Source of the DNA: Psammoneis japonica
Lineage: Eukaryota
Assembly (NCBI GenBank): GCA_008632985.1
Contig: QPGO01000062.1
Span: forward strand, 124,001 to 188,000
Direction of reading: 5' to 3'
DNA length: 64,000 nucleotides
Numbering within the stretch: position 1 is the first letter of the stretch; each line of letters starts with the position of its first letter. Of this stretch, positions 6,001 to 64,000 are shown piece by piece. The translations under genes and the position numbers were made by a program. Under the pieces are notes generated by a model that worked only from the letters and a program-made list of their open reading frames with translations, was not told where the DNA came from and searched no databases.

Positions 6001-6500
6001 GGACTGCAGACGGAGCAGCGGAGGGCACGGCAGAAGAGGTGAGAAATGGGACATCACTTGGCTCTGTAGATAGCATTGCTGAAGGTACGTCACTGGGAGC
6101 GGCACTCGGAGCTGTAGATGGAGTAGTAGAGGGCACCGCAAAAGGGGTGAGAGATGGGACATCACTTGGCTCTGCTGATGGTGTTGTTGAGGGAACGTCA
6201 CTGGGAGACGCACTCAGAACTGTGGATGGCATAGCAGAGGGCGCTTTTGAAGGGGTGAGAGACTGGATGTCACTGGGCTCATTAGATGGCATTGCTGAAG
6301 GAACGTCACTAAGAGTCACACTCGGGACTGTAGACGGAGTAGTAGAGGGAACCGTCGAAGGGTTGAGAGACGGGACATCGCTTGTCTCTGTAGATGGCAT
6401 TGCTGATGGTACGTCATTGGGAGCCTCACTTGGGGCTGTAGATGGAGTAGCAGAGGGCACCCTCGAAGGGGTGAGAGACGGTGTTGTTGAAGGCACGTCA
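1..6500. repeat. Coding tandem repeat: 12-bp PSxx subunits forming 96-bp (32-aa) units, with a higher-order 864-bp period
   Basis: Recurrent 'gagacgggacatcacttggctctg' about every 96 bp. Antisense ORFs 1146-1832 and 2010-2696 translate identically, offset by 864 = 9 x 96. Confidence 0.95.
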
Positions 6501-25927: not shown

Positions 25928-26369
25928 TTTCTTCGTACTCTTTCAGCGTTTAGGTGGCTCTGACGGGTGGTCGATGCCATTTTTCGAAGGGGTTTGAGGT
26001 TGTTCTGGCGACGCAACGTGTGAGCGATACCCGGCCGAAGCCAGAGAAGGAAGGAAGGAAGGAAGGCATAATTTGTCCGACTACGAAAATAATTATCATC
26101 ATGACTATGTCTGTGAGGGCAATAATTAGGGCTTAGAGAACAAAAAGACATTTTAAAAAAAGTACGAATAAAATGACTGGGCATAAATCTGAGAGGTTTC
26201 TACTCCAGCATGCGAAGGAGACATACACGGAAAGAAGTGGAAATTTGTAGCACGAACATTTTGTGGTCAGAAGCAAGTGGTGCATCATCAACAAAAAGCT
26301 CCTCTGCGCATCCGGTGGCAGCAGACTGTGTGGATGCTTTTCTCTAGTTTAGGTTAAATGGAGTTATGC

Positions 26370-29300
26370 GTGCCACAAAAGTGCCATTTTCACCCAATCC
26401 AGAAAAGACAGTGGAAAATTAAAGTCACACAGGAGCATGGCGAGGGACCAGCGTGCTGCTTGCGACGTGATGCTCAATTTTGCGAGCCAACAGAGCCCAT
26501 CCTTCACCATCATGCCACCAGGATCTGAGCCAAGTGATGATGGATCAATGGACAACACTTGTCTGCAAAGGATCAAAACATTTCAAGCTGTTGAAGCAGG
26601 CAGCTTGGCTGGAGGAGCCATCCAGGCATTCTGGGAGCGGCGCAGCACACTCATCAGGCTGGTGAGATTGCACAATGCCACACAACATGCAGGCGACATC
26701 TCAGCAACACTGCTTCATTGCACTCAGGCACTCTTTTTTGTCTGCATTAAAGCCACACATTCTTTGAATGTTTTTGTCACGAACCAGTTGAAATTTGAGC
26801 TCTGCTGTCTCTTTCCGTGTTGACCCCTTCTTTCCGAGCCTCCCTCAAGCAACACACTGCACCAGGTGATGTCAGAACACCTGTGTGAATGCAATGCATG
26901 TGTGACATGCACCACCTCCACTGCAATCTCTCCCACCAAGAGCCTGCCTCCTCCACCTCTTTCTGGCCCCACTTCTGAAATGTGCAAACACACATTGTGC
27001 AGTTCCTCCCAAGGCCAAGATTGCTTCAAACACATGTGTGCTTGGGCAGGTGATGACATGAGGGAGCCCCTCACCTCTGCCCCCCCACTTTGACCTTGCC
27101 TTCAAGCTTCAAGCCATGCACCTTTCAATTTGGGTCAGCCAGGTTGCCCCCAATCCAGCAGTCTGATTTGGCTGCAGGCATCCATGCTGCACTGCTGTGG
27201 GCTTCTGTGGCTGGCGCCAATCCTTCACCCCTCATGCTCCTGCACAGATGACACCATCATAGACTGCATTGAGTGGTGCTCCACAAGGTTGCGCTGGCTG
27301 CACTTCTCAATCTTTTGGCAGCTGCAGATGCTCCCCTGGGTCAACCTTGCTTCACCTGAGTCCCCCACGCTGCCAGTGACCCAGCACCAGATCTCACCAT
27401 GGAAGTCATTGAACAGTCAACTGACCGGCTGGATCTGCACTCAACCACACTTCCATCTTATCCAGCAGCCCACCCAAGCAATGCGTGCATGCCAAGTCTG
27501 CCCATCCCTCAACTTGGTTGCAGGATTTGGGCCACAAAGCATCCAGGAACAAGGTGTTTGTGCCTTGGGATGCATGTCCGCTGGTGGGGGAAACTCTTCT
27601 TGTTGATTGGCTGGCTTTTCCATGTGCCAAGTCTTGCTGTCATTGAGAATGTTGCACTTGGTTCCTGGGTTGTGCATTCCAACAAAAACTTGAGCCCAGG
27701 CACAAATCTGCAAGAGACCCAGTCATCCTCTTTGCCAGAAAAGGCTTTCATTGTGGTGGGTGGGTGTTGGATCTCATGTGACATCATCTGTCATGACCCT
27801 CGCAAACAGAGCCATCTTGCACCTCCCCAATGCCGGCTGTTTTTCCACCACTGCAGCCTCTCCTGCCAAGAGCCTGCCTCCTCCTGTTTCTGACCCCGCT
27901 CATGAAGTGTGCAAACTTGCATCATTGTTTTGTGCTGCTGCTCCTTTCGAGTCTCTGGAGGCCCCAGGTTGCTTTGCCCACCCAGGTTGGTGATGAGAAA
28001 AGCAAGCTTCTCACCTCCAGGCCTTCCACTTTAACTTTGCTGTCAAGCCCTGTGCCTCAATCCACTTGATTTGGTTGGGGGGGGGGGGGGGGGGGGCAGC
28101 ACTGGTGCCACAATGGTTGTTTGGAGGGCCAACAAACTGATGGTTGATGGATTGATTCAGAGAGGGAGCTGCTGCAGGAGCAGCCCAAAGGGGCAGCAGA
28201 TGAGGGAGGTGGCTGCAGCTGCATTCCAAGTTGTGNCTTCCTCAGATCAACCCTGCTTCATCTGATTGTCATCAAGCAGCTGGCTGCTGCAGATCTTTCT
28301 GCGTGCTTGTGCTCAAACACCACACTTCTTCCATCCAATCCAGCCCACCCAAGATGAGTGTGTCATTGAACAATGCTTCTGAGTCTGCCCATGCAATCAA
28401 TGAACAAGGTGTTTGCCTTGGGGCATGTGCCCACTGGAAAGGTCCTCTTGGCTGACTTTTCCATGCCAAGTTTTTTGCACCCCAGAGTCCTTGGGATGTC
28501 ACGCCACTTGGTTCCCAGGTTGTGCATTGCAACAAAAACCTTCATGCTCTTGAACCCGGGCGTGAATCTGCAAGAGACCTTGTCACACTCTTTGCCAGCA
28601 CTGGCCTTCATTGCCATGAGCAGGTGTCTGATTTTTTTGATGTGTGCTGCAATGACCCCCACAGACAGAGCCAGCTTGCACCCTGCATTGGGCCTGGCCC
28701 CATGGCTGCAGCCACGGCTCCTTTAGAATCAAAGGGTGGATCTGTCACAAGGTGCGCCAGAAGGACATTGAAGTCCATCACAAATCTGTGTGCTTCCAGC
28801 TTGTGTGTGGCATTGCCACAAAAGCTGTGATGTTCTCCTCTGAGCCGAGTGCTTCTCCTCATGTTTTGATGTCCTCTTTGTCACTCTGAGCTTTGATCTT
28901 TCAACACAATTCAGACATGTGCTCCACTCCACTGGCAGGCCTGATGATGCCCCTTCCAGCTGTGTGGTCTTGGCTGCATGCACTGCAGAGGGTGTCTTGC
29001 AGCCACTTGAGCTTGGTCTCTCCCTGGCAGACCCACAGTGCATGAGCTCAAGTGCCTTCATGCAAAGGGCAGACAAGTCCTCCCTGGCTGCGTCAAACTT
29101 GTGGTGGGCAGTGTCTCTTGCTGCATCAAGTGTCAAGGACCTGAACTCCAGTTTGAACAGATCCACAATGCTCCCCCCCCTCCCAACCCTGTGCAGACAC
29201 TTTGGCCCAGGCCACCAACCTGGAGGTTGACCACTGCCTGCAAGAAGAGAGTTGAAGGAGCATCTCCAAGTGCTCACCCAGCAGTTCAATCAGTTCCTTC

Positions 29301-30230
29301 TCAGTGGCTGCATTCTCCTCCCAGAGATCCATGATTGCATGCTCCAGTTCCCTGAGCAGCCTTTCCATGGTGACAAAAAGCTGAGGATCAGGGTGGGTGT
29401 CTTTGACTGCAGTGCACTCCACCTGTGGCTCCTCTCCTGCTGGGTCTCATTGTTGCCTTCATTGCTCACCAAGAGCATCTCTGTGCTCCTCCTTGCCTTG
29501 TGGTGGTGGCTTGTCTCCCACCCAAAGATGAGGTCTTTTGGATGATGTTGGCTGGAGGGAGGTGCTGAAATGCTGCTCTCCACTGCTTGGGTGGTGCACC
29601 AAGCTGGGGCAAGTAATCAGCCACTCCATGTTGGCCCCAGTTGTCCAGTGCTGGTAAAGAGAACACCGCTGGCTTGGTTCCTGTGCTTGTCTCTCACTGG
29701 GCAGCTCCTCCTGATGGCTCAAACTGGCTTGCCAAGTGTTGGACACACAGCAGTTTGGTGCTTGGCTCCAGTGCATGACCATGACTGCGCATCCATTTTT
29801 CACTCCAATCAACAAGCAGCATGAACAGATTTTGCAGCAGCATCATGGTGATGATGCACTGTTGACTGTGTTTGATGGGATCCCACCACAATTTCTTGAC
29901 AAATCAAACATGGCCACACTCACTTCTTCCAAGTGCGGTTGACAATCTTGGTTGAACGGGGAACCAGGTTGGTCCACCCAACTTGCCTTCTTCTCTGCCA
30001 GTGAGCACCAAGATGTCATCAAAAAGTGAAGGCTCTTCTGTGCATGGGAGGCAACATCAATGTGTCAACTGCTGTGCTTCTGTGAGCTGATTCAGAGTGG
30101 TGGCACACCACAGCACAACAGCTTGAGAAGCAACATCTGCTGCCACATTGCTCTTGGTGGAATTGGTGGGCATTTCATGCACGTTTGATCATGCACATTT
30201 GAACACATTTTGGCTGTGTGTTTGACCCCA
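26370..30230. pseudogene. Hypermutated TpA/CpG-depleted tract A; relic of a gene or element with an internally repeated domain
   Basis: About 8 TA dinucleotides in ~3.8 kb by eye, and few CG. Diverged internal repeats 27547-27822 vs 28402-28682 and 26928-26990 vs 27856-27915. G20 run at 28077-28096. Confidence 0.75.
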
Positions 30231-30551
30231 CGACGAAAGCAATGTTTTCAGTATAAAGAAGAGTCCGGCAAGACTGCCTGTGTCGACTTACTTCTGTTTG
30301 ACAGAGGCGATTGGTGTGCATGTATTCCACCACATGACACTCGAGAGAAAGTCCCGTACAATGATTATCCAAGCCATGCTGTCGAAGGGGGTGGCTCTAG
30401 AGAGTCTCTGTACAGTGGCCTCGCGACGCCATTAGATTTGCCTTTTGTTGCGTGAGATCACAGGGTGAACAACTTGAAGAGTAGACACGACGTTACTTAG
30501 GCTTATAGCTACATCCTTCATATTAAAACATGAGCCAACCAGTGCAATAGC

Positions 30552-40740: not shown

Positions 40741-41019
40741 GGTGTGTCCAAAGCAATGATAACAATAAAAATAATAATGGTGCCAAAGGAAAAAGCATGT
40801 TGTGGCGGTTTTGTGCTTTTTGAATTTTTCCAGAAGAGTGAGCAACCGTCAGGGTAATTTTATTGCATATTCGCATTTGCATTTTTTCATATATTTTTGT
40901 GTTCTACGAAGCCGTAGACTTTCGTTTGATTCCGTTATGTCAAACTGTACGACCGGCGCGACCGGATGCATTCTTTGTCGACCTCTCCGACTGCTGTGCA
41001 AACAACTCAACTGGGAACT

Positions 41020-44000
41020 GGGAATGAATGACAGCTGACTGCCTTTTGACTCATGTGGCACTCTGCTTTCCAACACTGCCTGAGCACAGAAGAACTGCAT
41101 TCATTCAACATTTGTTTCAACTGTCAAACTTCTTTTTGTCCTTCCAACACACCTGAACCTTTCACATGGAAGAAATGTGAGCCTTCTTTTTTGTCCCTTT
41201 TCGCACCACTGTTGTTGCGCTGGGTGTGGGTGTGGTGTGGGGTGGGGAGATGAGTCAAAAAATGAAAGACACACAATTTTTTTTAACTGGTGCAAGCTCA
41301 GTTGGCAGTTCTCCCACAGAGAGACTGAACGGACAGAGAAGAACTGGTGCTGCAAAAAGGCTCTAAAAGGCAGAAACAGGGTTCTTTTCCCCAAGTTGTT
41401 GTGAAAACCCTGGGGCAGTTGCTGTCCTCCAGTCACCAAACTTTTGGTCATGTGGACTTTTTGGGACACCCACACCTGGAGTGGAGAGAGCAATCTTTTG
41501 TGATCAACAAGATGTCAACTGCTTTGGTTGGTGGCAGTTGGCTGGCTTTGCTGTTCTTTGAATGGGGCAGGAGCCACTGGCCAAAGCACCAGCCACAAGA
41601 AGTGCTCCTGCAGTGGCAGCAGCTGTGGCTCTCACTTGCCAAGGCTTCATCAGCTTTGACTGAGTTCCTCTCAGCTGTCTTGTGGCACTGTTTTTTCATG
41701 TGCTCTGCATTTTGATCTAACCCAGTCTGCCTGCAAGTCTGAGTTTGTCACCCGCTTGCAGCACATTTTTTTCATGTGCTCAGCATTTTGATCTGATCCA
41801 GTTGGCCTGGCTGAAAGGCCAAGTTTGGCACCTCCATGTCTGTGTGTCTGTCATTTTTGTGTCAATGCATGGATGTTGTTGCTTGTCGCTGGTGCTCCAC
41901 TCTCTCAAAAGATTGCAAAAAGGGCTCTGCACAACACAGCAGAATTTGCTTCACAGTGTGATTGCATTTTTTGTCATGACTGTGAGAATCATCATCCATC
42001 CACTGCCTCTTGATTTCTTGTCCTTGGTCCCAAACAAGACCAAAAACCAACAAAACACCACCCTCCAATCCATGCCATTCTTGTTGTTTCATTCAGACCA
42101 CCTGTCACACTCATGGTGATTGGGGTGCAAATTTGGGATGCAACTTGGGGGTGCAAAAATGCACATTGCATGAACTCACACCCAAAAATTGCAGATTGTT
42201 TTGTGCAGGTGTGGGAATTTAAAACCACCCTTCTGAAACAAAAAGATGTTTTCTTCTGACTTTGAAAAGCAGCTGGCAGGACAATGGTGCATCATCAAAA
42301 ACTCATTGTCTGCAACCCACAAGCAACCTCACGCAATGTGCCAAAGAGTTGTCTGTCATGAGTTTGCAGTTTGACCAAAGGTGCTGGAAACTTCTTTGCC
42401 GTTGCTGTGGGGCAACAAAAGCACAGGCACAATGGCCATGCTGCCAACAACAAAAAGCTTTGCTGAATTTTGCAGCCACTGATGACAATTCCTTCTGACC
42501 AGTGGTTGGAGAGAAGCAGAGCAAGGATGAGATGTGTTTTCCCAACCACTGTGGAGTGCAGATGCACAACAGTTGATTGATTTTGTGGTTGCAGGATGCC
42601 TCTGCTTCAACAAATCACAGTTGGGGCTTTTCAATGAAGTGCTGCTGCTGATGTGCACTGCAAGTGTTGCAGCATTCAACTGGAAAAGTCACCAGCCACA
42701 GGATCATTTCCTGATGGCGCCAGTGGCAGAAAGTGAGCAGCTGTCAACACTGCCATGTCCCAGCGTGCCTGCTCAGGAGCTTGTGGCTGCATTTGTTTCA
42801 CATGCACTGGTGCAACAAGAGGTGCTTGCACCATCACACATTTTGACAACATTTGCAGCTCAAAGCTGAAGGTGAAATTGTCCTGTGAGCTTGCATCCTT
42901 GACTCAGTGGTGAGAAATTGACAACACACTCACACCTCAGAATCTCAAATTAAAAAGGAGCACCTCCTGGCACCACTGATGAGCCTCCACACTGCAATCA
43001 GCCACCTGGTGGAATCTGAGTGTTGCAGTCCAGCAGTCATGGTGTCTCACACAGACACCAACAAGCAGCAGCAGTGCCAAAGTGGGGCATCATGTGGGCT
43101 GAGAACCTGCCTCACAATGAGAAAGAGAGCCCAAACCTGCCTGCTGTTGAGCATGTGATTTTTTCTTGGCACTCTTCCTTGATCAACTCATTTGGTGCTT
43201 GCTTTGTCCTCAATGCTGACATGCACTGGCTCCAAGTGGGAGACCTTGACATGCCAGAGTGGGGCAATTTTGGATGAAAACAGACCACCCAATGCAAAAA
43301 TTGCAAAAGGCTCTGCACAACAAAAATTGCTTCAAAAGCACCTTTGCAGAAAACAGTCAATGCAAAAAAGCAGCTGCTGATTGCAAGACAAGATTTGCAC
43401 TGCAATGTTCCTTGGTTGCTGCAGAATGCTTCTGTTTGTTTTTTCCACAATCTTGTGTGCACTGCAAAGCTGCTGTCATTTTTTGGCATCAGGCAAGCAC
43501 CTCAAATGCAGCCATTGTCTTCACTGGTGGGCAACTGTTGCCTGAACTCATTGAAAAAGAGCGCGCAACTTTTAAAAGCAAGTGATGCTCATCCAGAAAC
43601 TGGACCTCCAGACAGGTTTGACCAAGTGAAACAGAGAGAAAGGAAAGATGCAGACAAAACCAAAAATGTGGGTGCAACCCCATGACACAAAGACAAAGCA
43701 TGCAAGAAGGCATCCAACCAAGGCAACACCTTGTTTTCTGCAAGAACAATGGCACAGACTGCATTCTTGTTGCATGTGGTGGGTGCAATGGCACAACTGT
43801 TGTTGGGTGTTTTTGGTCAGAAGACATCAAAATTTGACCAAAAAATTAGACCAAAAAATGCTGGGGATGAATGAAAAATGTGCACAACCATGACACAAAG
43901 CTGAGGCACAAGGCATTTGAGGCAGAAACTCATGGCACAAGAGCAACAACACACTTTCTGTGTTTGTTGCAATGAATCTGGTGGTGCTGTTGTTGCCAGG

Positions 44001-45480
44001 AATTGTTGGCCACATGCTCAGATGTTAAAATTGACATGAACAACACACAACTCAAGTCAATCTCTCTTGTTGTTTTGTGACAGAAAATCAAGTCATGAGG
44101 AGGCTCCCAAGCCAAATCTGTGAAACACAAAAATGCAGTCTCACAGACCAGCTGTGGCACAGCCACCTCAATGATGCAACCAACTTCTCTTCAAGTTTTG
44201 TGCCTCAATGATGCAGCCTTGCTGTCAAAAAAGAGCTGTGGCTGTTGCCTTGCTTTTTCTTGTCAAATGTTGGTGTTTGAAACTTTTCTCTCAAGCTCAT
44301 CTCAAAATGCTGCCTGCCAACCCACTTCCACCAGCAACATTCAATTTCCACCCAATCTTCAACAAACCAACCAGCAACAAAGATTTGTTGGAAGTCACCC
44401 ATGTGTGTGGGCAACTTCAAGAGGAGATGAAAACAACAAAACAGCTGTGCTGGATGCAGCCAGAATTTCCATGCTGGACCAGTCTGCACCCTCTCCACAA
44501 TGACTTGGTGATTTGGGGGTCCTGCCCTCCTGCAAATGTCTTTGGTCTCTTTGCATGACTGTTGCAGGCCAGTGAGAAGAACATCTGGCATGTCAGCTGA
44601 TGCCACTCTGAAGAAGAGAAGCTCCATTTCTTCTCAGCAATGTTGCAAAGGAGCTCTGTGCAGCATCTTTTTTCAGCGCCAGTTTGCATTGTCAATGGAG
44701 TGTTTGGCAGCTTCATCATCCTGAGCTGCTGTGTGCGGTGTCTTCATTTGCATCAACAACAACACCAGCAATCTCTTGTGCTGCTGTGAGCCCTGGCTTG
44801 ACTGTGACATCTTTCACACAGTGGTGATTGGTTGGTTAGAGTGTGTGTCTGACGGCAGCAAGTTCATTTGAAGTGCAGACAATGCATGGACGCAAAGAAG
44901 AAAAGCCGCTCCAAACCATTCGAACATGGATTTGGAATGAGTTCAATGATCTGATCTCAGATCCAGTCACCAGTGCTGGCTCCAATCTCCTGACCATTGC
45001 ATTTTTTGGTTTCCTGCTTTGTCCCATGACAAAGCACACTGCATGTGCCACATCATGTGGCCCAGCTGCTGCGACACCATGGGGTGCAAGAAAATCAAGT
45101 GTCGCGGTTGCTGCAATTGTTGCTTTGTTGAGGATGCCAAAAGAAATCATTTTGAGTCAATTCACTGTGTTGGTTGAAAAAGTACAAGGCTTCCAGAGCA
45201 ATGAGTTTGTGATGCAAGAGTGACAACATTGGCCAGCTCAATGTGGCCGATCTGATGGTGGCGCAGCTTTTTGAGCTGTTTGTTGACTGCTTGGACACAC
45301 CATTGCTCCTTGCTGACAATCATTGCATTGTTGATGAAGCAATCACCTTGCTTGGAAATCAAAATTCCTGGATCAAAAGTGACAACGTGCGGCTCAAGTC
45401 TCCGCTCGCCAGTGTGTGCTGTGTCAATTGCGAGCTGTGAGGATGACCACATGCAGAGTCTGCCGAATCAATTGGCACTG
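41020..45480. pseudogene. Hypermutated TpA/CpG-depleted tract B (likely decayed mobile element)
   Basis: About 9 TA in 41040-45180, all within TTA/TAA. Tyr-free His/Cys/Gln-rich broken ORFs. Grades into normal composition after ~45500. Confidence 0.7.
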
Positions 45481-47429
45481 CCCTTGTTGGTCTGAGCCAA
45501 CCGGTGGCATCCAAAGAACAAGTGGGTGGATGTGTTGGAACTGCCAGCGCTGAACCATTGCTTGGAGACGCTGGAGATGGGAGAGATGCACTCCCAACTG
45601 GGAGGAAGACGGATTGGCGTCGCAGAAATGACAATCTTGAAATTCTTGGGAAACCCGGAGTTACTTTGCTGTCGAGCCGTTCGGATTTATACTGGAACTT
45701 GTGTAGAATTTGATAAGGACGCAATTCCATTTTGATAAGGACAAGTAGAAATGCACGGTCCATTTGGGTACATATTTGATAAGGACGCCTGAGCAGGAAT
45801 CCTCTTCATTTCCTTCATTCCACTCAAACGCTCCCGATTTGGCATACCGCACCGTAAGAAACGGCCATGCACATAACACTTTGATGCATCTCGCCATGGC
45901 ATACATCGTGGGGTAGACGTATTTTTCATGGGTGATCTCTTTCTATCGTTGTTATAAAGAGGTTGATGCATTGGTTTGGTTTCATGGGGCGCTTTGGTTG
46001 CGACACACGGTGCAAACGGTTGCATGCTTCGACTCGTAGCTCGATTACGGCACGGTACGGGTAACACCTGAATGGTCGACAACATTGCGGCGGTAAGTTC
46101 TTTCTATATTTTCTCGTTTTATGTCGTTTTCTTAGTCACCAAAGATCATTGTTGTGTTTTGTTAGAGCTTGAAAAGTGGATGGATCGTCTCTTACGGTCG
46201 ATTATGGTATCTGTTATGTTGGCATGTTTTTCAAGCCGTTGGCGCCGCCAGAGCATATCCGTTTATGAGCTTTATGCTTCATCCCACTCTACATCCTTTG
46301 GTTCATCTATTATATATATTATGATGCATTCGTGACTCGCTTGATATCCTTCTTGGGGGCTTGGTCGGTGCATAATAGCGGCATGTCATTTTTCGGGCGT
46401 GTCAATTTCTCAAAAGTGCATGCCGTGGGAACAAAACGACGCGATGGAGCCTGGAGGACACTTACGATGTTGGTATTTGTCAGACAGTCTTATCATAGTC
46501 AAAAAAAGGTAAGCCTGTGAGTATGTTGTAATTGTTTGAGTATTTGACTCGTTTTGACGAAACTTGCATACCTCACGAGCCTTTTTCTGTGCGTCTCGTT
46601 CATGCGTGCAGGTGTCTGGTCTAAAATGACCCTTTCCACCTACCCTTCAACCGTATTATCATCAATGTCTAAGACATGATATTGTCCATGTTAGTTTGGG
46701 AGATCTTGGTGGTGTAACTACGACTCTAGGCTTTGCAATGGGTAAAATGGGGAGGTTGAGGCTTGTGTTGGCGGGCTCATTGCCTCCTCTTGAATGCGCG
46801 GATGCCACGAACCGCTGATGGTACTTGGGGGCATAAAAATTGGTAAGGCGACTCAGCTCCACCTTTAAAAGTTGCCCTAGTGAGTGTACTGTGATATGTA
46901 CAGTAACCCCAATGGATTGTTATTGTGTACGTTGTTCCACTCATATTTTCATTTTGCCTGTCATTTTTTCAGCATGGATATCTGGGACTGCGAGCGCTTA
47001 AAGTGGCATTTTTTTTTCCATGCCAATACTCTACAAGACTCAAGTCCTTTGATAATAGTTGTTCCTTTAGGGAATCAGATTGTGGAGCTTTCCGCATCTG
47101 GTCGGGTCTAAAGAGGAAATGAGGTGGAGCCGGCTTTCAAAAGTGAATGAGTTTTGGCTTGTCGTGCGGTTGCATCTCAACGGTAGCGTTCGCAGTGGGC
47201 GTGTAAATTTTCCGTGATCAATGAAGCAGTAGATAATGTATTAAGATAGATCATGGCATGCTGCTGTTCTTTAGAGTGTTTGCTGCTAGCCAGCTAGAGA
47301 GCTGCGACTACTACGTTGGAAGTGCTAATCGTCTGGGCGTCGGGCGGGCGCACACACTGTCGATGCATCTCTCCCTCTCTCCTCCTCCTCTTTTGCCTCT
47401 TCTTTTTTTCATAAACTCGGAGCTGCCAT

Positions 47430-48860
47430 CTTGTTGCTTGTTGCTTGGTCACTCACAGGTTGTTGGTGCTTGTTTCTGGAAAGAGATCAGGTGTCGCACT
47501 CCACCCGTGCAAGAACTGCAAAGTGTGAGCTGAAAGGAATGCATGAGACTGGCATTTTGTTTGAAGCCTCAAGATGGATCATCGCTCAATCAAATGCCCA
47601 AGGTCAGAGGCAGCCACAACAGTTGGCAAGCAGGTGTTTTCCAACTTCCAACATTGTTGAATGTGCCAACATGTTGCCTCAGTTTCTCTTGCATCCTTTG
47701 CATCTGTCGCTTCAATCTCTGGAACCAGCCGGAGGAAATTGGAGCTGAGCCTGCCAAGCCTGCAAAACCAAAAACAAAGCAGAAAAAGTCAAACTCTGCA
47801 AAGATGAACAAGAACAGCAACAAAGAGAAAACGTCCTCATCTTCAAGAGCATCACAAGAAGCATCGAGAGGGAATGTCATGCCTTGTCTAAAACTTCACT
47901 TTTTGTCTGTTCTGATGCTTCATCTCCTCTCTGCACCTTGCATCCATGTTCAGCATGGCAACAGAGCTGAAGGGCAAGCAATGGCTCAGGGCTGATGTGC
48001 TGAGCACACTTGATTGCATGGAATGGGTTTGTTTTGAAGCTTTCAAATGGTCCACCTTTCGCGGCAATGCAGTGTCATCTCATGTTGAGCACTGCCTTGC
48101 TGCTTCGCATGGAAGAGCTTGTGCTCATGGAGAAAAGACTCGACAGCTCCTGGCGGCTCCTTGACCTTGGAAATTGGCGGTGAAGCCCAAAATTCCAATG
48201 GCACTTTGCCACAGCAATCTTCACACATCCACAATGGGGCTGGCAGCAATGTTCACAACAGCGGCACTGCTTCAGTGTCCAACAGTGAGAATGGATGAGG
48301 AAACGGTGGTCGACCAAAGCACTCCCACAAAGATGTGGTGGCATCTGGCAAATCTGAAGAGATCGCTGTTGTTGTGTCAACACTGGCAAAAGCACATGCA
48401 CAGCAATTGGTGATGGTGGCGTGTTGAGTTGCATCCTCTTATGGATGAGAAAATGGAGTGCTGTTGTCCAAAGACATTTTGATTGCACACCAAGCTCGTT
48501 CGGCGGCTGGCTTGGATCCAGGTTTCTTCTTGCAATCGAGGCCGGCATCGACTGCTGACATTGTGGCTGATGATTCTCAAGCCTTGGCAGCAGCTCTGAA
48601 TGCAGTCAACTGTTACAAACTGGTGAGGAATGCTGCCCTTGCAGCACAAGAGGAGTGCAACCAACACCTGGAAAGGAGCTTTTGTTGCCCATTTTTGGGT
48701 GTTTTCTCTCACATCTCTTGCCATTGACACGCTTGTCACAGCAAAATACGGATGTCATGCATTGACATTTTTGGCAGGAAAAGGTTTGGTGGCAAGGTCA
48801 AACATTGGTTGTTGCCGCATCATGGTTGGTTTGTTGTTTCCGTCTTTTCTCGCAGCAGCA
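47430..48860 (+). pseudogene. Hypermutated tract containing a plus-strand gene relic
   Basis: ORFs 47946-48164 and 48174-48413 are in the same frame, separated by a TGA (possibly from CGA). TA nearly absent. Flanked by related ~90-bp direct repeats. Confidence 0.55.
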
Positions 48861-49118
48861 TGAATGTCGTAAAACGTCTGGCCGTCGTACGTACGAATTG
48901 AACGTATGGCGTTTTCTCCTCTCCTTTTCCTCTTTTTTTTTTTCATAAAATCGGAGCTACCTACCGGTACCAAAACTGCCTGAGCAAATCCATTCCAACA
49001 CATCATTGACATCTCAACTCTCAATTGTAAAACCTCCTTCGTGTTCTGCCCACACACCTGAACCTTTTACATGGAAGAAAGATGGTGCTTGCGTTTCACT
49101 GCAGACAGATGAGTCAAC

Positions 49119-51746: not shown

Positions 51747-51812
51747 GTTTGTACCGTAAGTTAAAATTGCCATACGAATTTTTTGTCTCTATTTTTTAAA
51801 TAGCGATAGCAA

Positions 51813-52230
51813 CACACCGTGGCATGCGTGTTTTGAGCAAGAGCTGCTGCTGGCATCAGAGTGCCGTTGTTGCCCAGCAAACACCAGCTGCCCATGTAAA
51901 TTTTGGCGAGGGTAGGGCGATTGTTGCCCAATTGCTGACAGACTCTTTCTCAAGCACCATGATGCATGAGCTTGCCCAAAAGACAGAATGACATCATTGG
52001 ATCACATGAATTTCACAACAGCAAACATGGTGAGAGAAACACTTGTTTTGATTGATGGAGCAGGAGTGGTTCATTGCAAACAGAGAAAGGAGAGATGCTG
52101 GATGTGAACCCAAGCAGCACAAATTGCTGTGTGTTGACAACAGAGAGGTGGTCGGGAACAGTGAGACACTTGAAAGACATGCAGGCATCATGTGCACAAA
52201 GAGAGCAATCAAAGTTCCTCACCAAGAACT
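51813..52230 (-). pseudogene. Truncated, hypermutated paralog of the 5' part and upstream region of the RNI-like LRR gene at 60217-61221
   Basis: Colinear with ~61010-61420, e.g. caagcaccatgatgcatgagcttgcccaaaag (51951) vs caagcgccgtgatgaacgaacttgcctaaaag (61144). Confidence 0.85.
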
Positions 52231-52239
52231 GTCTTGTTG

Positions 52240-55200
52240 TTGAGCTTTGAAAAGCAGAGGGCACACCAGATGTGAATCTGACAAAAAACTGCATTTGTTT
52301 CTTCATGCTTCATTGCAAGAAACATGTGTGGTCTGCTCCATGGATGCCTCACTTGCCACACAATCACAGCAAGCTCTCAGACTGCATTTGTCATGGAAAG
52401 CCATCTTGGCACCCCACACCTGCTGTGCTTCTTTTGCTGCAACTCTGGCGAAGCTCCATGAAGCTCCATGTGTCACGCCAGCAATTTATGACTGCCTTGT
52501 TGAGCCCAGAGAAGAGAGCAAAGATGCAAATCTCAACAACATGCAGGTTCATTTTTCACTCAATCACAAAGAGGTCTTTCTCTTCTACAGACATTTCAGG
52601 TTTCACAAGCAGTGTGTCAAGTCATGAGACTGCATTTGTCATGAACTTCATGATTTGCACCCCCAGCAGATGTCTCAGCCACATGAATGGTGCACAGACC
52701 CCAAACAAGACAGAGGCAGAATGACAACAAGCAGCTTTGCAGTCTCAGCAAGTTTTCAGTCTTTGTCCATTCTAACCTGCACACTGCAAACAAACTGTCT
52801 GTCTGCTGGCAACATTTTGCTTTTGAGCTGTGAAGTGTCAGCTTGGACAATGTGCATTTGTCAGGTGGAGCTTTGTCTCCTGAGCAGCTGTTGTTGTTCA
52901 GACTTTCACTGTGTGTCACTGGTCTTTGGCACTGTTCTTTTCTTTTGATTTAGCAGTGGCAACCTTTGCTGCTCTGCCATGCCACTGGCAATGCTGTCTT
53001 TGTTTGCAACTCTTGGAAAGCTGTCCATGTTTGTCCCCTGAATTTGTTGTGCTGGACATTTGAGAATTTACATGGTCCATGGATTGGACACAAAATCTCC
53101 CACTGTTCTCTTGTTGCCATGTTGCTGGAAACATTGTCAAGTTGCTTTTTCTAAAGATGCTTGTCTGCCTTTGAGAGTGTCTTGTTTTAAATCAAGCCAC
53201 TCTGTTGAACTCAGGTTGTTGGTGCAAACAAACCAAAATTGTTCTGGGCCAGGCAGTTGTGCATGGTGACTTCACAGCATTCACACACCACCATGCCCTG
53301 CTTCAATCCACCACACACAAGAGACAGATTCAAGTGGTCCCCCAACTTGTGTGCAGGGCAATGCCATGCACCTGCTTTGGCTTTGCAAGCTGCACAATGC
53401 ATTGGCAAACCTCCAACCATTGCAAAGCAGCACATCCATCTGCTTCCATGGTTGTTGGTCCATTCTGCACAACCAGCAAATTCAACAGTGCTTGATTGTG
53501 GGCTTCAATCAATGCCCTCCTCTTGCACCACTTTTTGAGGTTCACTTGCACACATCTGGTGTCCTTTGTCCAGGCCAAACATTTTTTTGCATTGGCAACC
53601 AACCAGCACCAGAGAAACTGGACAACCAACAATTCCTTGTTCAAACTGATCCATGGCACCAAACAATGGAGACATCGTGCATCAAACAAAGATGTGTGCA
53701 ATTTGTGTCTTCATTGTCATTCTCCCAAATCCAAAGAGTGCAGCAATGTTGTGAGACTCTGTTGTGAGAGGGTGCCAGCCACTTTTTGCCTGCTTGGTGT
53801 GTTGCCCCTCTTGGTTGCTTGCCATGGCATCATGCACCACTGCCATTGATGCAAAATGTCTCTCACAGCAGAGTGGTTGGCTGTGGGCACTGCCAGCAGC
53901 TGTTGTGACTCAGGTGTCTCCACGAACCTGTGTTTTGGCAATGACAAGTGGTGCAGTTTGCTTGCAACACCTTTGACTGCCATTTGCAGGCCTTGCAGCT
54001 CTTGTCATCAAAGCCACAGTTCTGGTTTTGCCTGGGCAAACATCAAGATTGATCACATGATGTTCAGCAGCACCAAAAAAAAAACAAGAGACTTGGAATT
54101 TGTTGGGTTTGTCTTTGTTGTGCTGCCTCATGAGGCAGAACCAAGAAACCAACAGCTCTGATGCAGGGCAATGCTGTGAAGCATTGCACTCATTCAGTGC
54201 TTTTTTGGAGTTGCTGTGCAGTGCTTCCCAAATTTGTGTCAGCACCATCTGAGACACACGTGTTTTTGGATGCCCAGTCACTTGCATCAAGCGTGGCCTC
54301 AATGTCACTCTGTTTCCACCAACACAGACAGACAGCCAAAGATTGTCTGTGCAAAAGCACACTTTGTGGCAACCTCTGTTTTGGCATGAGCCATGGCCAA
54401 AATGTTCTCAGCAATCCTCAAGAAGAAGCAGTGCATTTCTCCACAGAGAGATGTGCCCCATCACTTGACTCCACAGCACACCTGACAGGTCAAAGTGAAG
54501 TGTGGGTTTTGCCATTTCTTGCAATGGTTGTTGGAGCCACAAGCAAGAGTGACAAGAAGTGACACATGAGTTTGACCACCAGCTGCAGAGGAGTTGAGAA
54601 CAGTCCAACAGATCATTGAATTGCTTTGTGATGCTGGGGTGCAGCATCAGCCCTGACAGGCCATCACGCACACTTTGTGAGGCAGCAACCAGAGAAGACA
54701 CATCTGTGCTCACCGCAAAACCTGCTCAAGTTGTCTCCTGCAAGATTGTTGATGCAAATGTTGTTGCCACAGTTGACATCTGCTTTGTCTTCATGTCATC
54801 ACCAGCCTTTGCTTTGGGTTCAGAAAAAGTTTGGCTGACATTGCATGTCCTCAAGTCAATGGATTCTTGCCAACCCCATGTGCCATCAGCTTCATCCAAA
54901 TCTTCTCCATTGCCAATCTTTGTTCTCAGTGGAGCAGGCTGCACAACTGCTTGAAGCTTTGTTGTTGGGAACAATTGAGCACACACTTGATGTTGCTGTT
55001 GCTCATGTGGCGCACCATTCATTGGACTGAGTGAGTGGTTTCTTGCTTGCACTGGAACAAAAAGCCATGCCTTTGCAACCCTGTTGCTGGCAGCAGTTTG
55101 TCAACATGCAGAAACACATTGACAACAAACAACTGAGCCAGAAGAGGAGTGTGTGCTGGGTTTGCAGATGTTGTGCTGGTTTGTGACAAACGGTGATCTC

Positions 55201-57295
55201 TGTTGTGTTGTCATCACCTCCTGCGTTGCCACTTCCAGGTGAGACATTTTTGCACCATTGCTTGGCACAAGCTCAGAGCCAATGTTTTGGGTCTTGCCTG
55301 TTGGCAAATGGCACCCAAACATGAGAAGGGTCAATTCTTGCATCTTGTAACTCAAGCCACATGATTTTCAAAATGTTGCCATTTGATTTCTCAGACACTT
55401 CACAATCTCCCCCAACGTGCACAAACTGAGAAGTTGTTGATTGTTGGCATGAAGCAGCCAATGTTCAGGAAGGGCACACATCAAATCTGTGATCACCACC
55501 AAATTTGCTTGGCAAAGCTCTGGGGCAAACTCTGGCTCTTTTGGTGGCGAGACTCTGACTGCTGGGAGGCACAAAAGCAACCAATGTCCAGCATTTCCAA
55601 CCAAGTTTGCTGCATCTGACATTTCCCCTTTGCAATGTCATCTCTGGCACATGGCACCCTGAGGGTTGCTTGGAGCAAATGTTCTGCTCCATTTTGCAGG
55701 GCTGCCCATCAGATCTGCTGTGTTGAGGAATTTTGGCCTTTGGTGAAAGAATTGAGCAAAATTGCTGCACTTTAGAAAAGGAGTCATCAGCCATGAGATC
55801 AATTTTTGCAGCTCAAGTGTCGACGTCTTTGCTGTGTTTGGAGATTTGGGTGCACAGTCTGTCTGTTTTCATTGACTTGCTCTGTCTTTGAGGATTTTGA
55901 AAGTTTGCAGACCACATGAAGCCGGCTCCACAAATTGGTGCATCAGATGCAACTGGCATCAGCTTTTGGGAAAAAAGTCAAAAGTGAGCACATTGCAAGT
56001 GTGCCTCAAGTGAGCCCAATGAAGAGTGTGCTGGCTGGGCCAATCCTTGCATGGAGTTCTGCAGAGGCCAGTGCAGCCAACAGCGTGCTGAGCACATTTT
56101 GCCAGTGCATTGTCCTCTCATTCCATGCAGCAATGTGCAGATTGATGATTTGTGCATGAACAAAGATGCAGGGAAAAAATGCCACAATCACTTCTAAGAA
56201 CTGCTTTTTGCAAAATTTGTGTGGAAAAAACCACAAAAAACAACTTTTCAGCCAGAGCTGCTTTTCGCAGTGTGGGGTGTGGCACACAGTGAAAACAACT
56301 GAGCAACATTGGCAAGAGCTGGCTGACAAACTGGACAAGCAACAAAAGAATGTGCAAATCTGACAAGTGTGCAAAATTTTAAATGAGGCATGCAGAGTTG
56401 CAGGGAAAAATTGTCAGGCACCTTGCGCTCAACACATTGCATGATTTCCCCTGAGTTGCGAGCAGTTGCGTGCAATGATGTGAAGGAATTTGCGCTGACT
56501 TTTTTGTGGGGCTCAACATTGGACAACAAAGGCAACCTCTCCTGCAGAAAGAGGGTGTGGAACATGCAGTGCAAAGAACCTCAAACTTCACTTTTTGAAT
56601 GCTCTGGTTGCGACCAAGACAGAGTGCCGCCAAAAGACTGCAGGAATTGACAAAGAAAACTTTTGCGTCACATTGTAAAACACATGATGGAACTTTTTGG
56701 GAGACAAAACAATGATGCTGAGTTGATTTTTTGACAGGACTCATGTTCGTTGTCAAGTGCGACCAAACCATGACTTGCACAGAAATGTGCAGAACATGTG
56801 CCAAGCCCTGTGCTCTGGTTGCGATCATAGCTCCAAAAAGATCAAAGCAAATGAGCACAAAACTTTTGCTGAAAATGGCAAATTGCATGACAGAACTTTG
56901 GGAGATAAAACCGGGTTGAAATTGATGGCCAGATTGAACTTGCCGAATGGAATGTGAAAGGGCAATGTCCCTGCTTGTGCACACGAACCACCTGGTGGTC
57001 CGTGTGCATTTTTGGGTGCACACGAACCACCTGGTGGTTCGTGTGCACCCCACGCAAAATGCTGCGTAGATTTGTACCGAATTAAATCTGAGTGCCTACA
57101 TCTGCAGTAGGATCTACGTGAAAACGCACTCGAAACAGTGTCCACCGAGCCGGCAGTCATGTGCCGGGCGTCGTGAAAAGTATTTTATGTCTGAGAAAGA
57201 GTTCGTCAGGGCCGGCGAACAACACCCCTCTACGATGCGACTGGTATAAAATGTACGTAAATGCACAGGAACCAGCATGTGGTTCGTGTGCAAAT
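52240..57295 (-). mobile_element. Hypermutated piggyBac-like transposon relic (tract C)
   Basis: Minus-strand SWFCLMRQHNKDKPNKFQV..HVINLDVCPGK (54146-54028) resembles piggyBac transposase RQY.K.KP.K...Y..N..VY.GK once H/C->Y is restored. Palindromic repeats lie at the right end. Boundaries approximate. Confidence 0.6.
56978..57292. repeat. Three copies of a ~31-37-bp palindrome (tgcacacgaaccacc-t-ggtggttcgtgtgca)
   Basis: 56978-57008 (one mismatch), 57014-57050 (perfect 18-bp arms), 57262-57292 (degenerate). Confidence 0.9.
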
Positions 57296-57477
57296 TAGAG
57301 CTCGTGAAAAATAAGCAGGGATATAATGCGAGTATTCCTGCTGGTACGAAGTGCCTTCTCTGCGCTGTCGCTGCGTGACACACGACTGAAAACCGCACGT
57401 GGCCGGTAATAAAACTATCGGTTCATTTTTTGGAAGAAAGATGATTTTTGCGTTGCACTGCAGATACAAGAGCCAAA

Positions 57478-60216: not shown

Positions 60217-61221
60217 CTAAGCCTTGGTGATATGAGGGGCTCCTTGAAGAAAGTAAAAGATCAACTCGGGTTGATCCTGAACGCCGGCCAAGACTTGAGC
60301 CCAGAGAGAACTCGGCGCGCCTTCGGCACTCAAGAGTCGTCGTCCGGCTCTGTTTAGCTTGAGGTAAATGTCCAGTTCGTAGCGCAACTGTGGTTCATCG
60401 AGCTGGCCAAGAAACATCTTCTCGACGTAGTAATTCTCTTTCATGCCATTCCTGATAATGGCAGACGCTCCGTTCGCTCCAAAGCAGTTGTTCTGCAACC
60501 ACAAGCGCTTGAGGCTCCGGTTCATGACAAGCATCACCCCAAATGCCTCGGCACCCTCGTTGCCAATTTCGTTGAGACGCATATCAAGGACTTGCAAGAC
60601 GGAATTCGTAGCAACGCAATTGGCGAGCTCTTTAGCTCCATCATCACCAATGTTATTGCCTCCTAGATTGATTTCGCAAAGAGTCTGGTGCGGAGCAGCC
60701 AGAGCGAAACCAAACGCTTTGGCTCCTTCATTGCCAATGCGATTTCCGTAGAGATCAAGCACTTCAAGTGACCTGCTGTACTCTACTCCTCGAGCAAGCG
60801 TCATTGCTCCACACGGACCGATACTGTTCTTGGAGAGATTGACTCTCTTGAGAGTCCGATTCATACGAAGAGTGGCTCCCAACCACGTGCCCCCCTCATC
60901 ACCAACAGCGTTTCCTTCCAACCGAAGAATCTCTATAGACGTGTTATCTTGAAGCATATCAGCCAAAGCCATGGCGCCGGCATTGCCAATGCTGTTGTAG
61001 CACAAGTACAACACCTTAACATGTGTGTTTTGAGCAAGAGCTGCGGCCAGAGCCATGACGCCATTGTCTCCTAAACGCCAACCGCCCATGTAAAGTTCGG
61101 TAAGGGTGGGGTCATTGTTACCCAGGCGCTGACAGACTTCTTTCAAGCGCCGTGATGAACGAACTTGCCTAAAAGTAGGTACGGCGTCATTGGAGCGTAA
61201 GAGTTTCGAAACAGCAGCCAT
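60217..61221 (-). CDS. RNI-like (NLRC3/RanGAP-type) leucine-rich repeat protein
   Basis: 28-aa repeats LxxLxLxxNxIGxxGAxxLAxxLxxN; C-terminal LNRAGRRLL..LWAQVL..IFYFL. Start placed at MAAVSK. Confidence 0.88.
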   Translation of the reverse strand: MAAVSKLLRSNDAVPTFRQVRSSRRLKEVCQRLGNNDPTLTELYMGGWRLGDNGVMALAAALAQNTHVKVLYLCYNSIGNAGAMALADMLQDNTSIEILRLEGNAVGDEGGTWLGATLRMNRTLKRVNLSKNSIGPCGAMTLARGVEYSRSLEVLDLYGNRIGNEGAKAFGFALAAPHQTLCEINLGGNNIGDDGAKELANCVATNSVLQVLDMRLNEIGNEGAEAFGVMLVMNRSLKRLWLQNNCFGANGASAIIRNGMKENYYVEKMFLGQLDEPQLRYELDIYLKLNRAGRRLLSAEGAPSSLWAQVLAGVQDQPELIFYFLQGAPHITKA

Positions 61222-61744
61222 GGCGAGAGAGATACTTGGTTTTCTTGATGGAGAAGGGGGGATTCGTTGCAAAGAGAAAGGAGAGAAACCGGGTAAACCC
61301 CGGTAGCACAAGTCACTGCTGACACCAGAGAGGTGGTTAGAAGAATGAGACACTTGAAAAAGGCACAGGGCACAGGCATCAGAGCAGACCCAGAAAAGAA
61401 TCGAAATCGCTCGCCAAGAGAGAATGACGAAAGTTGACACCCAATCGTGTGGTGGGGCTTCCAGAAAAGGAAAGGTGTCATGATACAAGACTCGATCCCT
61501 TAAACTCAGACTACTTTGTTCGCGTTTAAATGTCGTAGCACGACTAATCAGAAATACGTACTCGCTTCTGGTACTCTTCTTGCGTACCTTCTACAGAGCA
61601 CTCGCATTGGGGTGGTGGTTTGGACACTCGGTTGCGACCAATTTTTCGACACCGCAACAGGCAAACAAAAAGACACGAGAAGAAGCGCCCAACGACGCCT
61701 TGTGCCACTGTTTCTTTCACTGGAAAACGAATTGTTAGAGTTCA

Positions 61745-63045
61745 CACCAATTCGATCACTCAAAGTGTTGGCAAGGATGCTGACATGGAGTGATCAACTG
61801 AAGAAGAAATGCAAAAAGAAGCAGGACTGAGATTTCCAAGTGCTTCAGACGGCGCTGGATGCGCCATGCTCTTGCTGGCGACAAAGCATGTCATCGGTGA
61901 TTTGGCTTGCTGGCAACATTGGGTGATTCATCTGGGTTCCTGCTGCTCTTCTCTCTGTCCAAGACCTGTTGCTGACAACCACATCTGTGTGCTGTTTCTT
62001 GCCTGATTGGCGTTGGCGAAGGAGGGGAGCACACAGAGCAGAGAGTGAGAAAAAGCGCTGCCTTGGCAAAGGATGTGTCAAGTGCACTGTCTTCCACAAA
62101 CAGGATGGGCTGAAGACTGCTCTGTCACAACCACCTCTGACTCCCCTCTTCTGGAGGCATGCCGCCTTTGCTTCTTTGTCCCTTGTGTCGACGTCGTCCA
62201 GCGCCAAGCACAGCTGGCATGGTGCTGTCTCAGGAGCCTGACTTGAGCATCAGCATTCTCCATGGAAGGCTGCATTGGCTGTGTCAAAGACATTCTCAGA
62301 GGGCTGGCTTGCTCAGTTGTTAGAGCTTTTGCAGGTTTTTCTGAAATGGCGACATTGCAGGCAGCGGGAACAGCAGCACCAGGGATGCTGGGCTTGGACC
62401 TTCACTTGAGGCCAGCACTGGCAACCCACCTCATGGCTGCACCCAGTGCCATTTTCAGTTTGAGCAAGAACACTCTGCAGATGTTTGTTTGAACAATTTG
62501 GGAAGCAGCAGGCACACCCAGATTGTTGTCCATGATGAGCGATCGCTTGTTGTGACTGTGGAGACAACACCCAGCACCCCCTCCTCCAGACAAGCAATCT
62601 CAGCTTGATCATCACATTGGGAGAATCAGGCAATTTTCATTTTCCAACCAATGCCTGCTGTGCACATGGCTTCAGGATGCAGAACAGGATAGTTGGGTGC
62701 AGAGCCCCCATTGTTGCCAGCTGCAGCTGTCAAGAGGAGGGTGCCATTGTCACAGACTTTCTTGTGCTGTTTCAGAATGATTTGTTGTGATCCTCTCCAC
62801 CAAGACTCACACTTTTGACATTGGCTCTCGCGCCCACCATTCACAGCACAGCTTTCAAGAGCATCAAGCATGCAAGACTCAGCTCCTTCCCCCCTTTTCC
62901 AATGTGGAATTTGAGTGGTTTCACATTGCCCATGACACCAGCAATGCCTTGTGATTCTTGCCACCAATGGCGTCTGTTGAGACAGACAGGAAAAAGAACA
63001 GCCTTCTTGCTCTTTGAAAAGGTGCAGAGTCCAACAGAGGCATTC
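61745..63045. pseudogene. Hypermutated TpA/CpG-depleted tract D
   Basis: Only about 2 TA in ~1.3 kb, reduced CG, and broken Tyr-free ORFs. Confidence 0.7.
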
Positions 63046-63190
63046 CGTACAAAGCCAAATTATTTTTATTAAACATTCAAAAGCTGCAATCCAGCAGTGC
63101 ACACAAGCAGAGAAACAGTCCATACAAAAATCAAAGTTTACTTTATACACTGTACAACATAGCTCATTTATTCATTCCCGTTACTCAATC

Positions 63191-64000
63191 TCACACATGC
63201 CACGCAAACCCAATCTCATCCAATCGCTCCTTGCGTTTCTTGGAAAGCTTGTCTTGTCGTGACCGTTGCGTACTCGCCCAGTACCCCAGCTTTTCATCCT
63301 CCTTACATTGCGACGGGACGCGGCAGTGTCCGTGCACCTTCTTGAATTTTTCAAGTCGTTCAAACATGCTATCCCACGTTTCTCGCAAACACCATGCAAA
63401 TCCAATACTCTCCAACAAGTCTCGTCGTTCTTGTGATAGCGAATCTCGTGATTGACGTTGGGTTTGGACCCAATTTCCAAGACGAGGATCAGGTTTGTAT
63501 TTGGTCGGGACACAACAATCACCATGGATCGCCTTGTAGTGTTGCAACCGAGCAAACATGACGTTCCAAATCGACTTGTCTCGGACACACCACTCGAAAC
63601 CAGCAGCCACGAGGCGTTCAATACGCGTGGGTGAGAGGGTATGCTTTTTAAAGTTGCGTCTCTGGCGTTCGACCCAACGACCTACGTACGAGGTGTTCAA
63701 TACACGCGTGAATGGGTGAGGAGAGGGTATGATTTTCAGAATTGCGTCCTTGTCTTTCGTCTCCACTCAACGACCTACCTAGCTTGGGGTCTGGCTTGTA
63801 TCGGTGTGGAACAAGACAATCGCCGTGCTTGAGCTTGTATTGGAGCAAGCGTTGATACATGGCGTTCCATGTCTCGTATGGTTGAGGACGTGGCTTTTGA
63901 TCTTGTTGTTCTTGTGGATCTTGTTGTTGCTTCGGACGGGTTGACGCTGTCGCAGAGAGCTGCGTGAGATGTAAAAGTCGTTCCGTATCCAGAGGCAACG
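63191..64000 (-). CDS. Helicase-associated (HA) repeat protein, 5' end probably outside the window
   Basis: Three HA repeats; intron 63778-63682 joins KLG|RWVERQR. Confidence 0.85.

Follow-up and report, generated by a model that had tools for sequence, protein, structure and literature searches.

Tracts nearly devoid of TpA in a probable diatom genome: likely transition hypermutation and the sequence context of the surviving sites

Known hypermutation systems and the five tracts

In the literature searched, hypermutation of DNA directed at the dinucleotide TpA was found only in one 2026 preprint on one alga, Bigelowiella natans (Mettrop et al., bioRxiv 10.64898/2026.01.13.699255). As the main text of that preprint reports, 231 of the 302 mutations in the B. 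natans mutation-accumulation lines fell in integrated giant-virus and virophage regions, and 230 of these 231 regional mutations were A>G/T>C, all at TpA. The mutation rate in the hypermutated regions was elevated approximately 1000-fold, and an ADAT2-like deaminase was proposed as the agent (bioRxiv 10.64898/2026.01.13.699255). Here we describe a stretch of 64,000 nucleotides (Psammoneis japonica, contig QPGO01000062.1, positions 124,001 to 188,000 of the forward strand; referred to as the window, whose own coordinates are used throughout), which probably belongs to a diatom nuclear genome. It contains five tracts in which TpA (TA) is almost completely lost and CpG (CG) is depleted, and the few TA that survive in them lie mostly in TTA or TAA context.

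The tracts were recognised from dinucleotide counts in 500-bp bins as regions of near-total TA loss, a drop in CG and a rise in TG and CA. Their borders were set by TA positions, which gives a total tract length of 16,255 bp, and no further TA-free stretch of such kind was present in the window beyond the following five.

26366..30251, tract A: 3886 bp with 8 TA; rho_TA 0.04, rho_TG+CA 1.82, rho_CG 0.14
40949..45661, tract B, the tract of the original prediction: 4713 bp with 10 TA; rho_TA 0.03, rho_TG+CA 1.84, rho_CG 0.16
47327..48613, tract B2: 1287 bp with 3 TA; rho_TA 0.04, rho_CG 0.40, the CG depletion being only about half
51914..56827, tract C: 4914 bp with 12 TA; rho_TA 0.03, rho_TG+CA 1.92, rho_CG 0.11
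61593..63047, tract D: 1455 bp with 3 TA; rho_TA 0.03, rho_CG 0.34, about one-third of the CG being kept

Tract C includes a TA-free run of 2160 bp at 53188-55348. Unless another background is named, the tracts are compared with the non-tract part of the window from 17.2 to 64 kb, which we call the outside or the background. The density of TA was 2.2/kb in the tracts and 40.9/kb outside, that of CG was 10.6/kb and 50.4/kb, and that of TG+CA was 227.8/kb and 149.1/kb, respectively. The gain of TG+CA (78.7/kb) is therefore approximately equal to the summed loss of TA and CG (78.5/kb), as is predicted if a background-like ancestor was converted via TA>TG/CA and CG>TG/CA, and this mass balance indicates that the tracts are transition-hypermutated. 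In the tracts TG and CA were mixed in a binomial-like manner at scales of 100-800 bp (dispersion 0.98-1.25, compared to 1.35-3.09 outside), suggesting that both strands were hit independently, site by site. A search for strand-coordinated patches of TG versus CA at the same scales found none in the tracts.

The tracts are like the hypermutated regions of B. natans in that TpA is lost, CpA and TpG are gained, the changes form kilobase clusters on both strands, and the neighbouring DNA is unaffected (bioRxiv 10.64898/2026.01.13.699255). The rule by which clusters are called in the preprint was passed by the 1-kb bins of 26001-30000 (four), 41001-46000 (five) and 52001-57000 (five), corresponding to tracts A, B and C; B2 and D, which are too short for the rule, had one passing bin each. 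Another trait of the B. natans clusters, the change of TpA to TpG or CpA, is seen here indirectly, through the mass balance, TG<->CA mismatches between repeats and the comparison with an intact gene copy. However, the organism is taken to be a different one (a probable diatom), and the tracts are near saturation (rho_TA of 0.03-0.04, compared to 0.45 given for the viral region in the preprint). In addition, CpG is lost as well, and the flank preference seen here is not discussed in the preprint main text, in which the words CpG, TTAA, flanking, trinucleotide and context do not occur (bioRxiv 10.64898/2026.01.13.699255). Finally, a scan of stop-free tract frames yielded neither viral nor transposon domains, and a host gene paralog is present as a fragment engulfed by one of the tracts.

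Fungal repeat-induced point mutation (RIP) likewise is a regional, dinucleotide-targeted transition hypermutation that wrecks a whole region. CpG-biased, RIP-like patterns have reportedly been observed in basidiomycetes, and the CpG>TpG part of the present pattern is similar to them. Nevertheless, RIP makes TpA from CpA, whereas TpA is destroyed here and CpA and TpG increase. Furthermore, duplicated sequence is a requirement of RIP, whereas no similarity was found between one tract and another in either normal or purine/pyrimidine coding; short repeats internal to a tract and one fragment of a paralog were all that was detected. The tract phenomenon is thus known in kind; what is new is the likely diatom host, the saturation with co-loss of CpG, and the hierarchy of flanks described below.

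Context dependence of TA survival

The interval 41020-45180 of tract B has exactly nine TA, at the positions given by the original prediction, where approximately 170 would be expected at 40.9 TA/kb. They comprise five TTAA (41284, 42220, 42951, 43573 and 44026), two CTAA (41364 and 41718) and two TTAG (43847 and 44837). The prediction had assigned all TA of tract B to these three contexts, which is correct for this interval; however, the full tract B has a tenth TA, a GTAC at 45183, and the end of the interval, chosen three bases before it, slightly flatters the count. In tract A, 7 of 8 TA were in TTA/TAA context, and in tract C the count was 11 of 12, both exactly as predicted; B2 and D come in addition to the three tracts of the prediction. 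When all five tracts were pooled, 32 of the 36 TA were in TTA or TAA context, compared to 519 of 1249 (42%) outside (Fisher p = 8.8e-9), and the share was 23 of 26 after the removal of tract B (p = 1.8e-6). The background share was 36-43% regardless of whether long open reading frames (ORFs) only, the DNA outside long ORFs or the whole window was taken. TTAA alone made up 10 of the 36 survivors (28%) and 63 of the 1249 outside TA (5%; p = 1.5e-5). The survivors also exceeded the TG and CA of the tracts themselves, 46.4% of which have TTA/TAA-type flanks (p = 2e-7). The flank preference of the surviving TA is therefore real, and the observation is confirmed.

The original prediction further proposed that survival should fall in the order TTAA > VTAA/TTAB > VTAB, owing to a per-strand rule by which a 5' T or a 3' A slows the loss. 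Survival relative to the tetramer counts of the flanking DNA followed this order (0.276, 0.086 and 0.010). Modest factors fit as well, since a two-parameter per-strand model solves exactly with the rate multiplied by approximately 0.63 for a 5' T and approximately 0.42 for a 3' A. Nevertheless, the rule is incomplete, as it leaves out the behaviour of CTAA/TTAG, of CTAG and of the fifth base. At the level of single tetramers, survival was 0.30 for TTAA and, comparably, 0.26 for CTAA/TTAG, followed by GTAA/TTAC (0.056), ATAA/TTAT (0.039), ATAG/CTAT (0.034), GTAC (0.021) and CTAC/GTAG (0.010). No survivors were found in ATAC/GTAT, ATAT or CTAG, the last with approximately 37 ancestral sites expected.

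The preference extends beyond the bases adjoining TA. T was enriched one, two and three bases upstream of the surviving TA (0.58, 0.61 and 0.43, symmetrised; background 0.27-0.28 at two and three bases), and A was depleted directly upstream (0.08 and 0.11). The pentamer TYTAA/TTARA accounted for 22 of the 36 survivors, compared to 75 of 1249 background TA (6%; p = 3e-17), and 12 of the 13 CTAA/TTAG survivors were TCTAA/TTAGA. The Akaike information criterion (AIC) of Poisson models of TA loss at hexamer resolution was as follows.

Uniform loss: 199.6
Three classes of the original prediction: 160.4
Ten tetramers: 153.6
TYTAA versus the rest: 124.0
TYTAA, other TTA/TAA, and neither: 119.5

Uniform loss across NTAN contexts, which the original prediction had named as the outcome contrary to it, was thus rejected in favour of the three classes. 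The summed rate of TYTAA was approximately 6.4-fold below that of the rest, and the difference per flank was only approximately 2-fold. The best-supported rule is longer than TTA/TAA, with a rate that appears to depend on approximately three bases on either side of TA.

Some simpler accounts of the survivors were rejected. Preservation of stop codons does not agree with the loss of GTAG, ATAG and CTAG, nor does general A+T richness agree with the depletion of A immediately upstream of the survivors. A "TAB-only" rule, with the remaining contexts immune, does not hold when approximately 70% of TTAA has been lost. As a separate observation, the heptamer GTTAGAG was common to three of the 36 surviving TA (44837, 61736 and 62321), which lie in two tracts.

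Origin of the tracts and competing explanations

Copies of related sequence within the window bear on the origin of the tracts. The internal repeats within tracts A and B differ mostly by transitions, and their identity rose from 69% to 83% on purine/pyrimidine recoding. Among the adjacent double mismatches between repeat copies, 7 of 23 were TG<->CA, which points to an ancestral TA or CG that was resolved differently in the two copies. A second comparison is provided by a gene for a leucine-rich repeat (LRR) protein.

51791..52178, minus strand, fragment of an LRR-gene paralog lying across the left edge of tract C
60217..61488, minus strand, intact LRR_6 gene (Pfam LRR_6, E = 8.8e-39), the sole unmutated relative of tract sequence found in the window

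In a tblastn search with the LRR protein, the fragment was matched by residues 116-169 at 56% and by residues 43-127 at 35%. Its DNA identity to 60998-61369 was 72% outside the tract and 77% inside, and the identity of the paralogs increased from 75% to 89% on purine/pyrimidine recoding. Outside tract C the fragment has kept TA and CG, and inside it has CA or TG where the intact gene has TA or CG. Within the window the intact counterpart of tract DNA is limited to 270 bp of this paralog, and the pair is old, so that it displays the pattern of change and not its rate. The left edge of tract C is sharp and independent of element borders. Since this edge cuts a host paralog fragment, it would be a chromatin domain that is targeted, and not some particular element.

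The LRR fragment belongs to a segmental duplication with units at 49089-50974 and 57448-59381, in which two ORFs, 49119-49748 and 49778-50974, correspond to one ORF, 57448-59334, with an amino-acid identity of 63-83%. Both units continue into LRR sequence and then into a hypermutated tract, the two tracts lying at equivalent places.

The comparisons of repeats and paralogs show that the tracts are of mutational origin, and TA survival in them is flank-dependent. We consider it likely that they arose by regional, dinucleotide-targeted transition hypermutation in a probable diatom nuclear genome, with the survivors being slow substrates. TpA would be changed to TpG or CpA (A:T to G:C at TpA), the two strands being equally likely to be hit, and CpG would be changed to TpG or CpA in the same domains, but more slowly. 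TA loss would be near saturation, with approximately 5% surviving overall. The per-strand rate would be approximately 2-fold lower with a T before TA or an A after it and approximately 6-fold lower in the pentamer TYTAA/TTARA, and many rounds would leave almost only the slow contexts. The agent may be an enzyme acting on DNA, either through deamination of adenine at 5'-TA, the route suggested for B. natans, or, equally, through modification of T, two routes that sequence alone cannot distinguish.

In ADAR, ADAT2/3 and TadA, A is read as G once deaminated, and a U or T directly 5' is preferred or invariant. With a TA target the 5' T is present by definition; however, those enzymes act on RNA, whereas here it is DNA, and both of its strands, in which the change has become fixed. 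The refractory Y-T-A-R resembles the tRNA A34 anticodon-loop context, which is the opposite of a simple ADAT-like preference, and the 3' G preference of ADAR is not followed here, as GTAG, ATAG and CTAG were lost. The fingerprint of flanks thus does not obviously fit either the ADAR or the ADAT family. The 5' U/T preference of ADAR is also stated in the Discussion of the preprint (bioRxiv 10.64898/2026.01.13.699255). The original prediction had taken the context preference for an enzymatic signature, which is reasonable but goes further than the rate differences needed can establish, these being modest (approximately 2-fold per flank and 6-fold for TYTAA). An enzyme is argued for most strongly by absolute TA specificity, which was measured directly in the other alga (bioRxiv 10.64898/2026.01.13.699255).

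The loss of CpG would be a second process, for example deamination of methylated CpG in silenced chromatin. In tract B, CG was nearly absent from 40990-44850 and only partially depleted in 44851-45661. In the shallow zones, namely B2, D and the right end of B, TA loss is complete and CG survival was 0.47, compared to 0.10 in the deep cores, and CG was retained for approximately 100-150 bp inward of the TA-free tract edges. In the deep cores, survival was highest for GCGC (0.42) and lowest for ACGA/TCGT (0.025), and GCG/CGC made up 39 of 60 surviving CG compared to 600 of 1540 (p = 8e-5). Decay of methylated CpG likewise yields TpG and CpA with the highest retention in G+C-rich flanks, but it leaves the TA loss unexplained, which is faster and reaches beyond the CG-depleted core. 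CpG decay therefore appears to be a slower process, separate from TA loss. Such a separate decay would be plausible for methylated DNA: diatom transposons are CpG-methylated through DNMT5a, and a RID-related DNMT4, whose function is not known, occurs in many diatoms (PMC9998398). Examples of surviving CG are found at 43562-43565, 42718 and 44677, and their bias parallels that of the surviving TA, except that the favoured flanks are G/C.

Several points weigh against hypermutation with slow-substrate survivors as set out above. The sample consists of only 36 survivors from one 64-kb window, and the ancestral tetramer counts were borrowed from flanking DNA and are not those of the true ancestors. 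For the direction and timing of the change, the sources are composition and a set of old paralogs, whose divergence is approximately 25% within the tract as well as beyond it. The TYTAA motif was found post hoc, and its sole guard is a split of the tracts, in which it accounted for 13 of 18 survivors in A+B and for 9 of 18 in the held-out B2+C+D, compared to the 6% expected (p = 2.9e-7). CTAG had no survivors, although 10 would be expected if it behaved like TTAA, CTAA or TTAG (P = 4e-5), and no simple multiplicative per-strand rule explains it. Protection is not absolute either: the surviving TCTAA at 41718 has TCTGA as its counterpart in the sister repeat, and where the intact LRR copy reads CTAAAA the tract reads CCAAAA. 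The targets in B. natans are foreign, whereas a Pfam scan of 138 stop-free tract frames of at least 70 amino acids found no viral or transposon domain. None of these frames reached the gathering score and two gave weak matches, and heavy mutation could hide a foreign origin. The CpG loss, which the preprint main text does not mention, may mean a different system.

Of the alternatives to hypermutation with slow substrates, one would have the TA of the tracts be new, made after full erasure by C>T change at TCA/YCA (TGA>TAA), either by a TC-preferring cytosine deaminase or by dipyrimidine UV damage in unrepaired silent DNA. A TA with a 5' T is the expected product of TCA>TTA, and in 35 of the 36 survivors the base 5' of TA is a pyrimidine on one strand or on both, compared to 896 of 1254 in the background (p = 2e-4). 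TC is also slightly scarcer in the tracts than outside (61.1/kb compared to 69.4/kb), and so is GA (57.1/kb compared to 67.6/kb). However, the possible source sites, namely the TG and CA of the tracts, have the right flanks in only the 46.4% given above. Regeneration also leaves the fifth base unexplained, since TCTAA/TTAGA was found in 12 of 13 cases compared to 24.7% of 445 source tetramers (p = 5e-7), and the same applies to the T enrichment at two and three bases upstream. Moreover, the CCA>CTA products CTAG, CTAC and CTAT are almost absent (0, 1 and 2), and fresh TA would be erased again if the process were still active; we therefore regard regeneration as improbable. Retention of the survivors by selection or by a bound, shielding factor, as functional motifs such as TTTAAA, TCTAAC-like or ATTAAA-like ones, seems quite improbable too, even though the survivors have a specific pentamer in common, three of them carry GTTAGAG, and 7 of the 12 in tract C cluster within 52487-53188. 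The tracts are without a recognisable gene, RNA family or tRNA, and the motif is short, degenerate and present across all five unrelated tracts. The same motif is mutated in the sister repeat and in the paralog fragment, and survival is graded by context as rates predict.

The changes are exactly A>G and C>T, and diatom repeats are CpG-methylated (PMC9998398), which would be in line with an artefact, heavily modified DNA having been wrongly assembled or base-called, with modified A read as G and modified C as T. Strand-specific miscalls, however, should leave a mixture containing TA and CG in a two-strand consensus rather than their near absence, and the same signature was obtained in the Illumina mutation-accumulation data of B. 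natans described in the preprint (bioRxiv 10.64898/2026.01.13.699255). The TG<->CA differences between old repeats and the sharp edge in the paralog fragment also look evolutionary, and we hold an artefact to be very unlikely. Least credible of all is that TA loss was uniform and the ancestral DNA of the tracts was unusually rich in TTAA/TYTAA. In its favour, intact copies of tract sequence are limited to the 270 bp of the LRR paralog. Nevertheless, the total of pyrimidine-purine (Y-R) steps per flank class in the tracts matches the background, and the mass balance fits a background-like ancestor. The TY-YR-A frames in the tracts number 287 (342 expected from the background), whereas 480 ancestral TYTAA would be required if survival were uniform at 5.4%.

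If, as we consider likely, the tracts record hypermutation with slow substrates as the survivors, the window suggests that a probable diatom has a process of the same kind, and diatoms are ecologically of major importance. The tracts show its end state, in which kilobase stretches have essentially no TA and little CG. The hierarchy of flanks, with TYTAA/TTARA and TTAA slow and RTAY and CTAG fast, would serve as a quantitative fingerprint that a candidate deaminase or base-modifying enzyme must match. It makes the question of the enzyme more directly testable, including against published de novo mutations. The co-loss of CpG and the edge through a host paralog fragment bear on how the target regions are chosen.

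A more far-reaching reading, which we regard as doubtful, is that a second supergroup besides Rhizaria, represented by a diatom, erases both self-complementary Y-R steps, TpA and CpG, to saturation. It would do so by DNA editing that is targeted to chromatin domains, leaves a TYTAA/TTARA-refractory footprint and, given that it reaches into part of a host gene, is not restricted to foreign DNA. In one variant, 5-methylpyrimidines (the thymine of TpA and the 5-methylcytosine of CpG) would be the substrates of one and the same activity, such as a TET/JBP-like oxidase, with mispairing products; in another, a dual A/C deaminase would be responsible. If this were true, the refractory footprint could identify the enzyme.

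Neighbouring genes and minor features

The window has the appearance of nuclear-type eukaryotic DNA with few introns and long uninterrupted ORFs. No tRNA or Rfam family was detected in it, and neither long terminal repeats nor inverted terminal repeats were found. Its ORFs include the following gene, and other ORF products are a helicase-associated (HA) domain protein, the LRR_6 protein and a 2OG-Fe(II) oxygenase.

30552-31808, minus strand, ORF of a complete phosphoglycerate kinase

No identical entry for this phosphoglycerate kinase was present among 5.8 billion proteins, the best match reaching 86%; on the assumption that the B. natans proteome is included there, the window is taken not to be the B. 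natans reference genome. Contigs with related kinases measured only 1.3-2.8 kb. For two other proteins of the window the nearest atlas clusters were mostly from Bacillariophyta, which serves as a lead and makes a diatom probable.

Two minor features concern TA-poor DNA. The segment 38001..39000 has 17 TA, approximately 40% of the background density, of which 12 are in TTA/TAA context and four are CTAA; its CG is normal and its rho_TG+CA is mildly raised (1.41). Tentatively, it may show the process at an early point, when TA alone is affected, or it may be due to chance. Near the right end of tract B, approximately 96 bp at 45295-45390 are self-reverse-complementary in purine/pyrimidine coding (81%), and may be a degraded palindrome.

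HA-domain units are repeated at 32600-34500 and 63200-63870, flanking the tract region; repeated HA units are typical of the expanded HA family in diatom-like genomes. A giant ORF at 1-8842 on the minus strand, open at the start of the window and coding for at least 2947 amino acids, contains approximately 60 copies of a 108-bp (36-amino-acid) tandem repeat with a strong G/C skew. The same 108-bp repeat occurs in the ORFs 11913-16028 and 23204-25417, which also have the N-terminal part in conserved form (amino-acid identity 52-72%).

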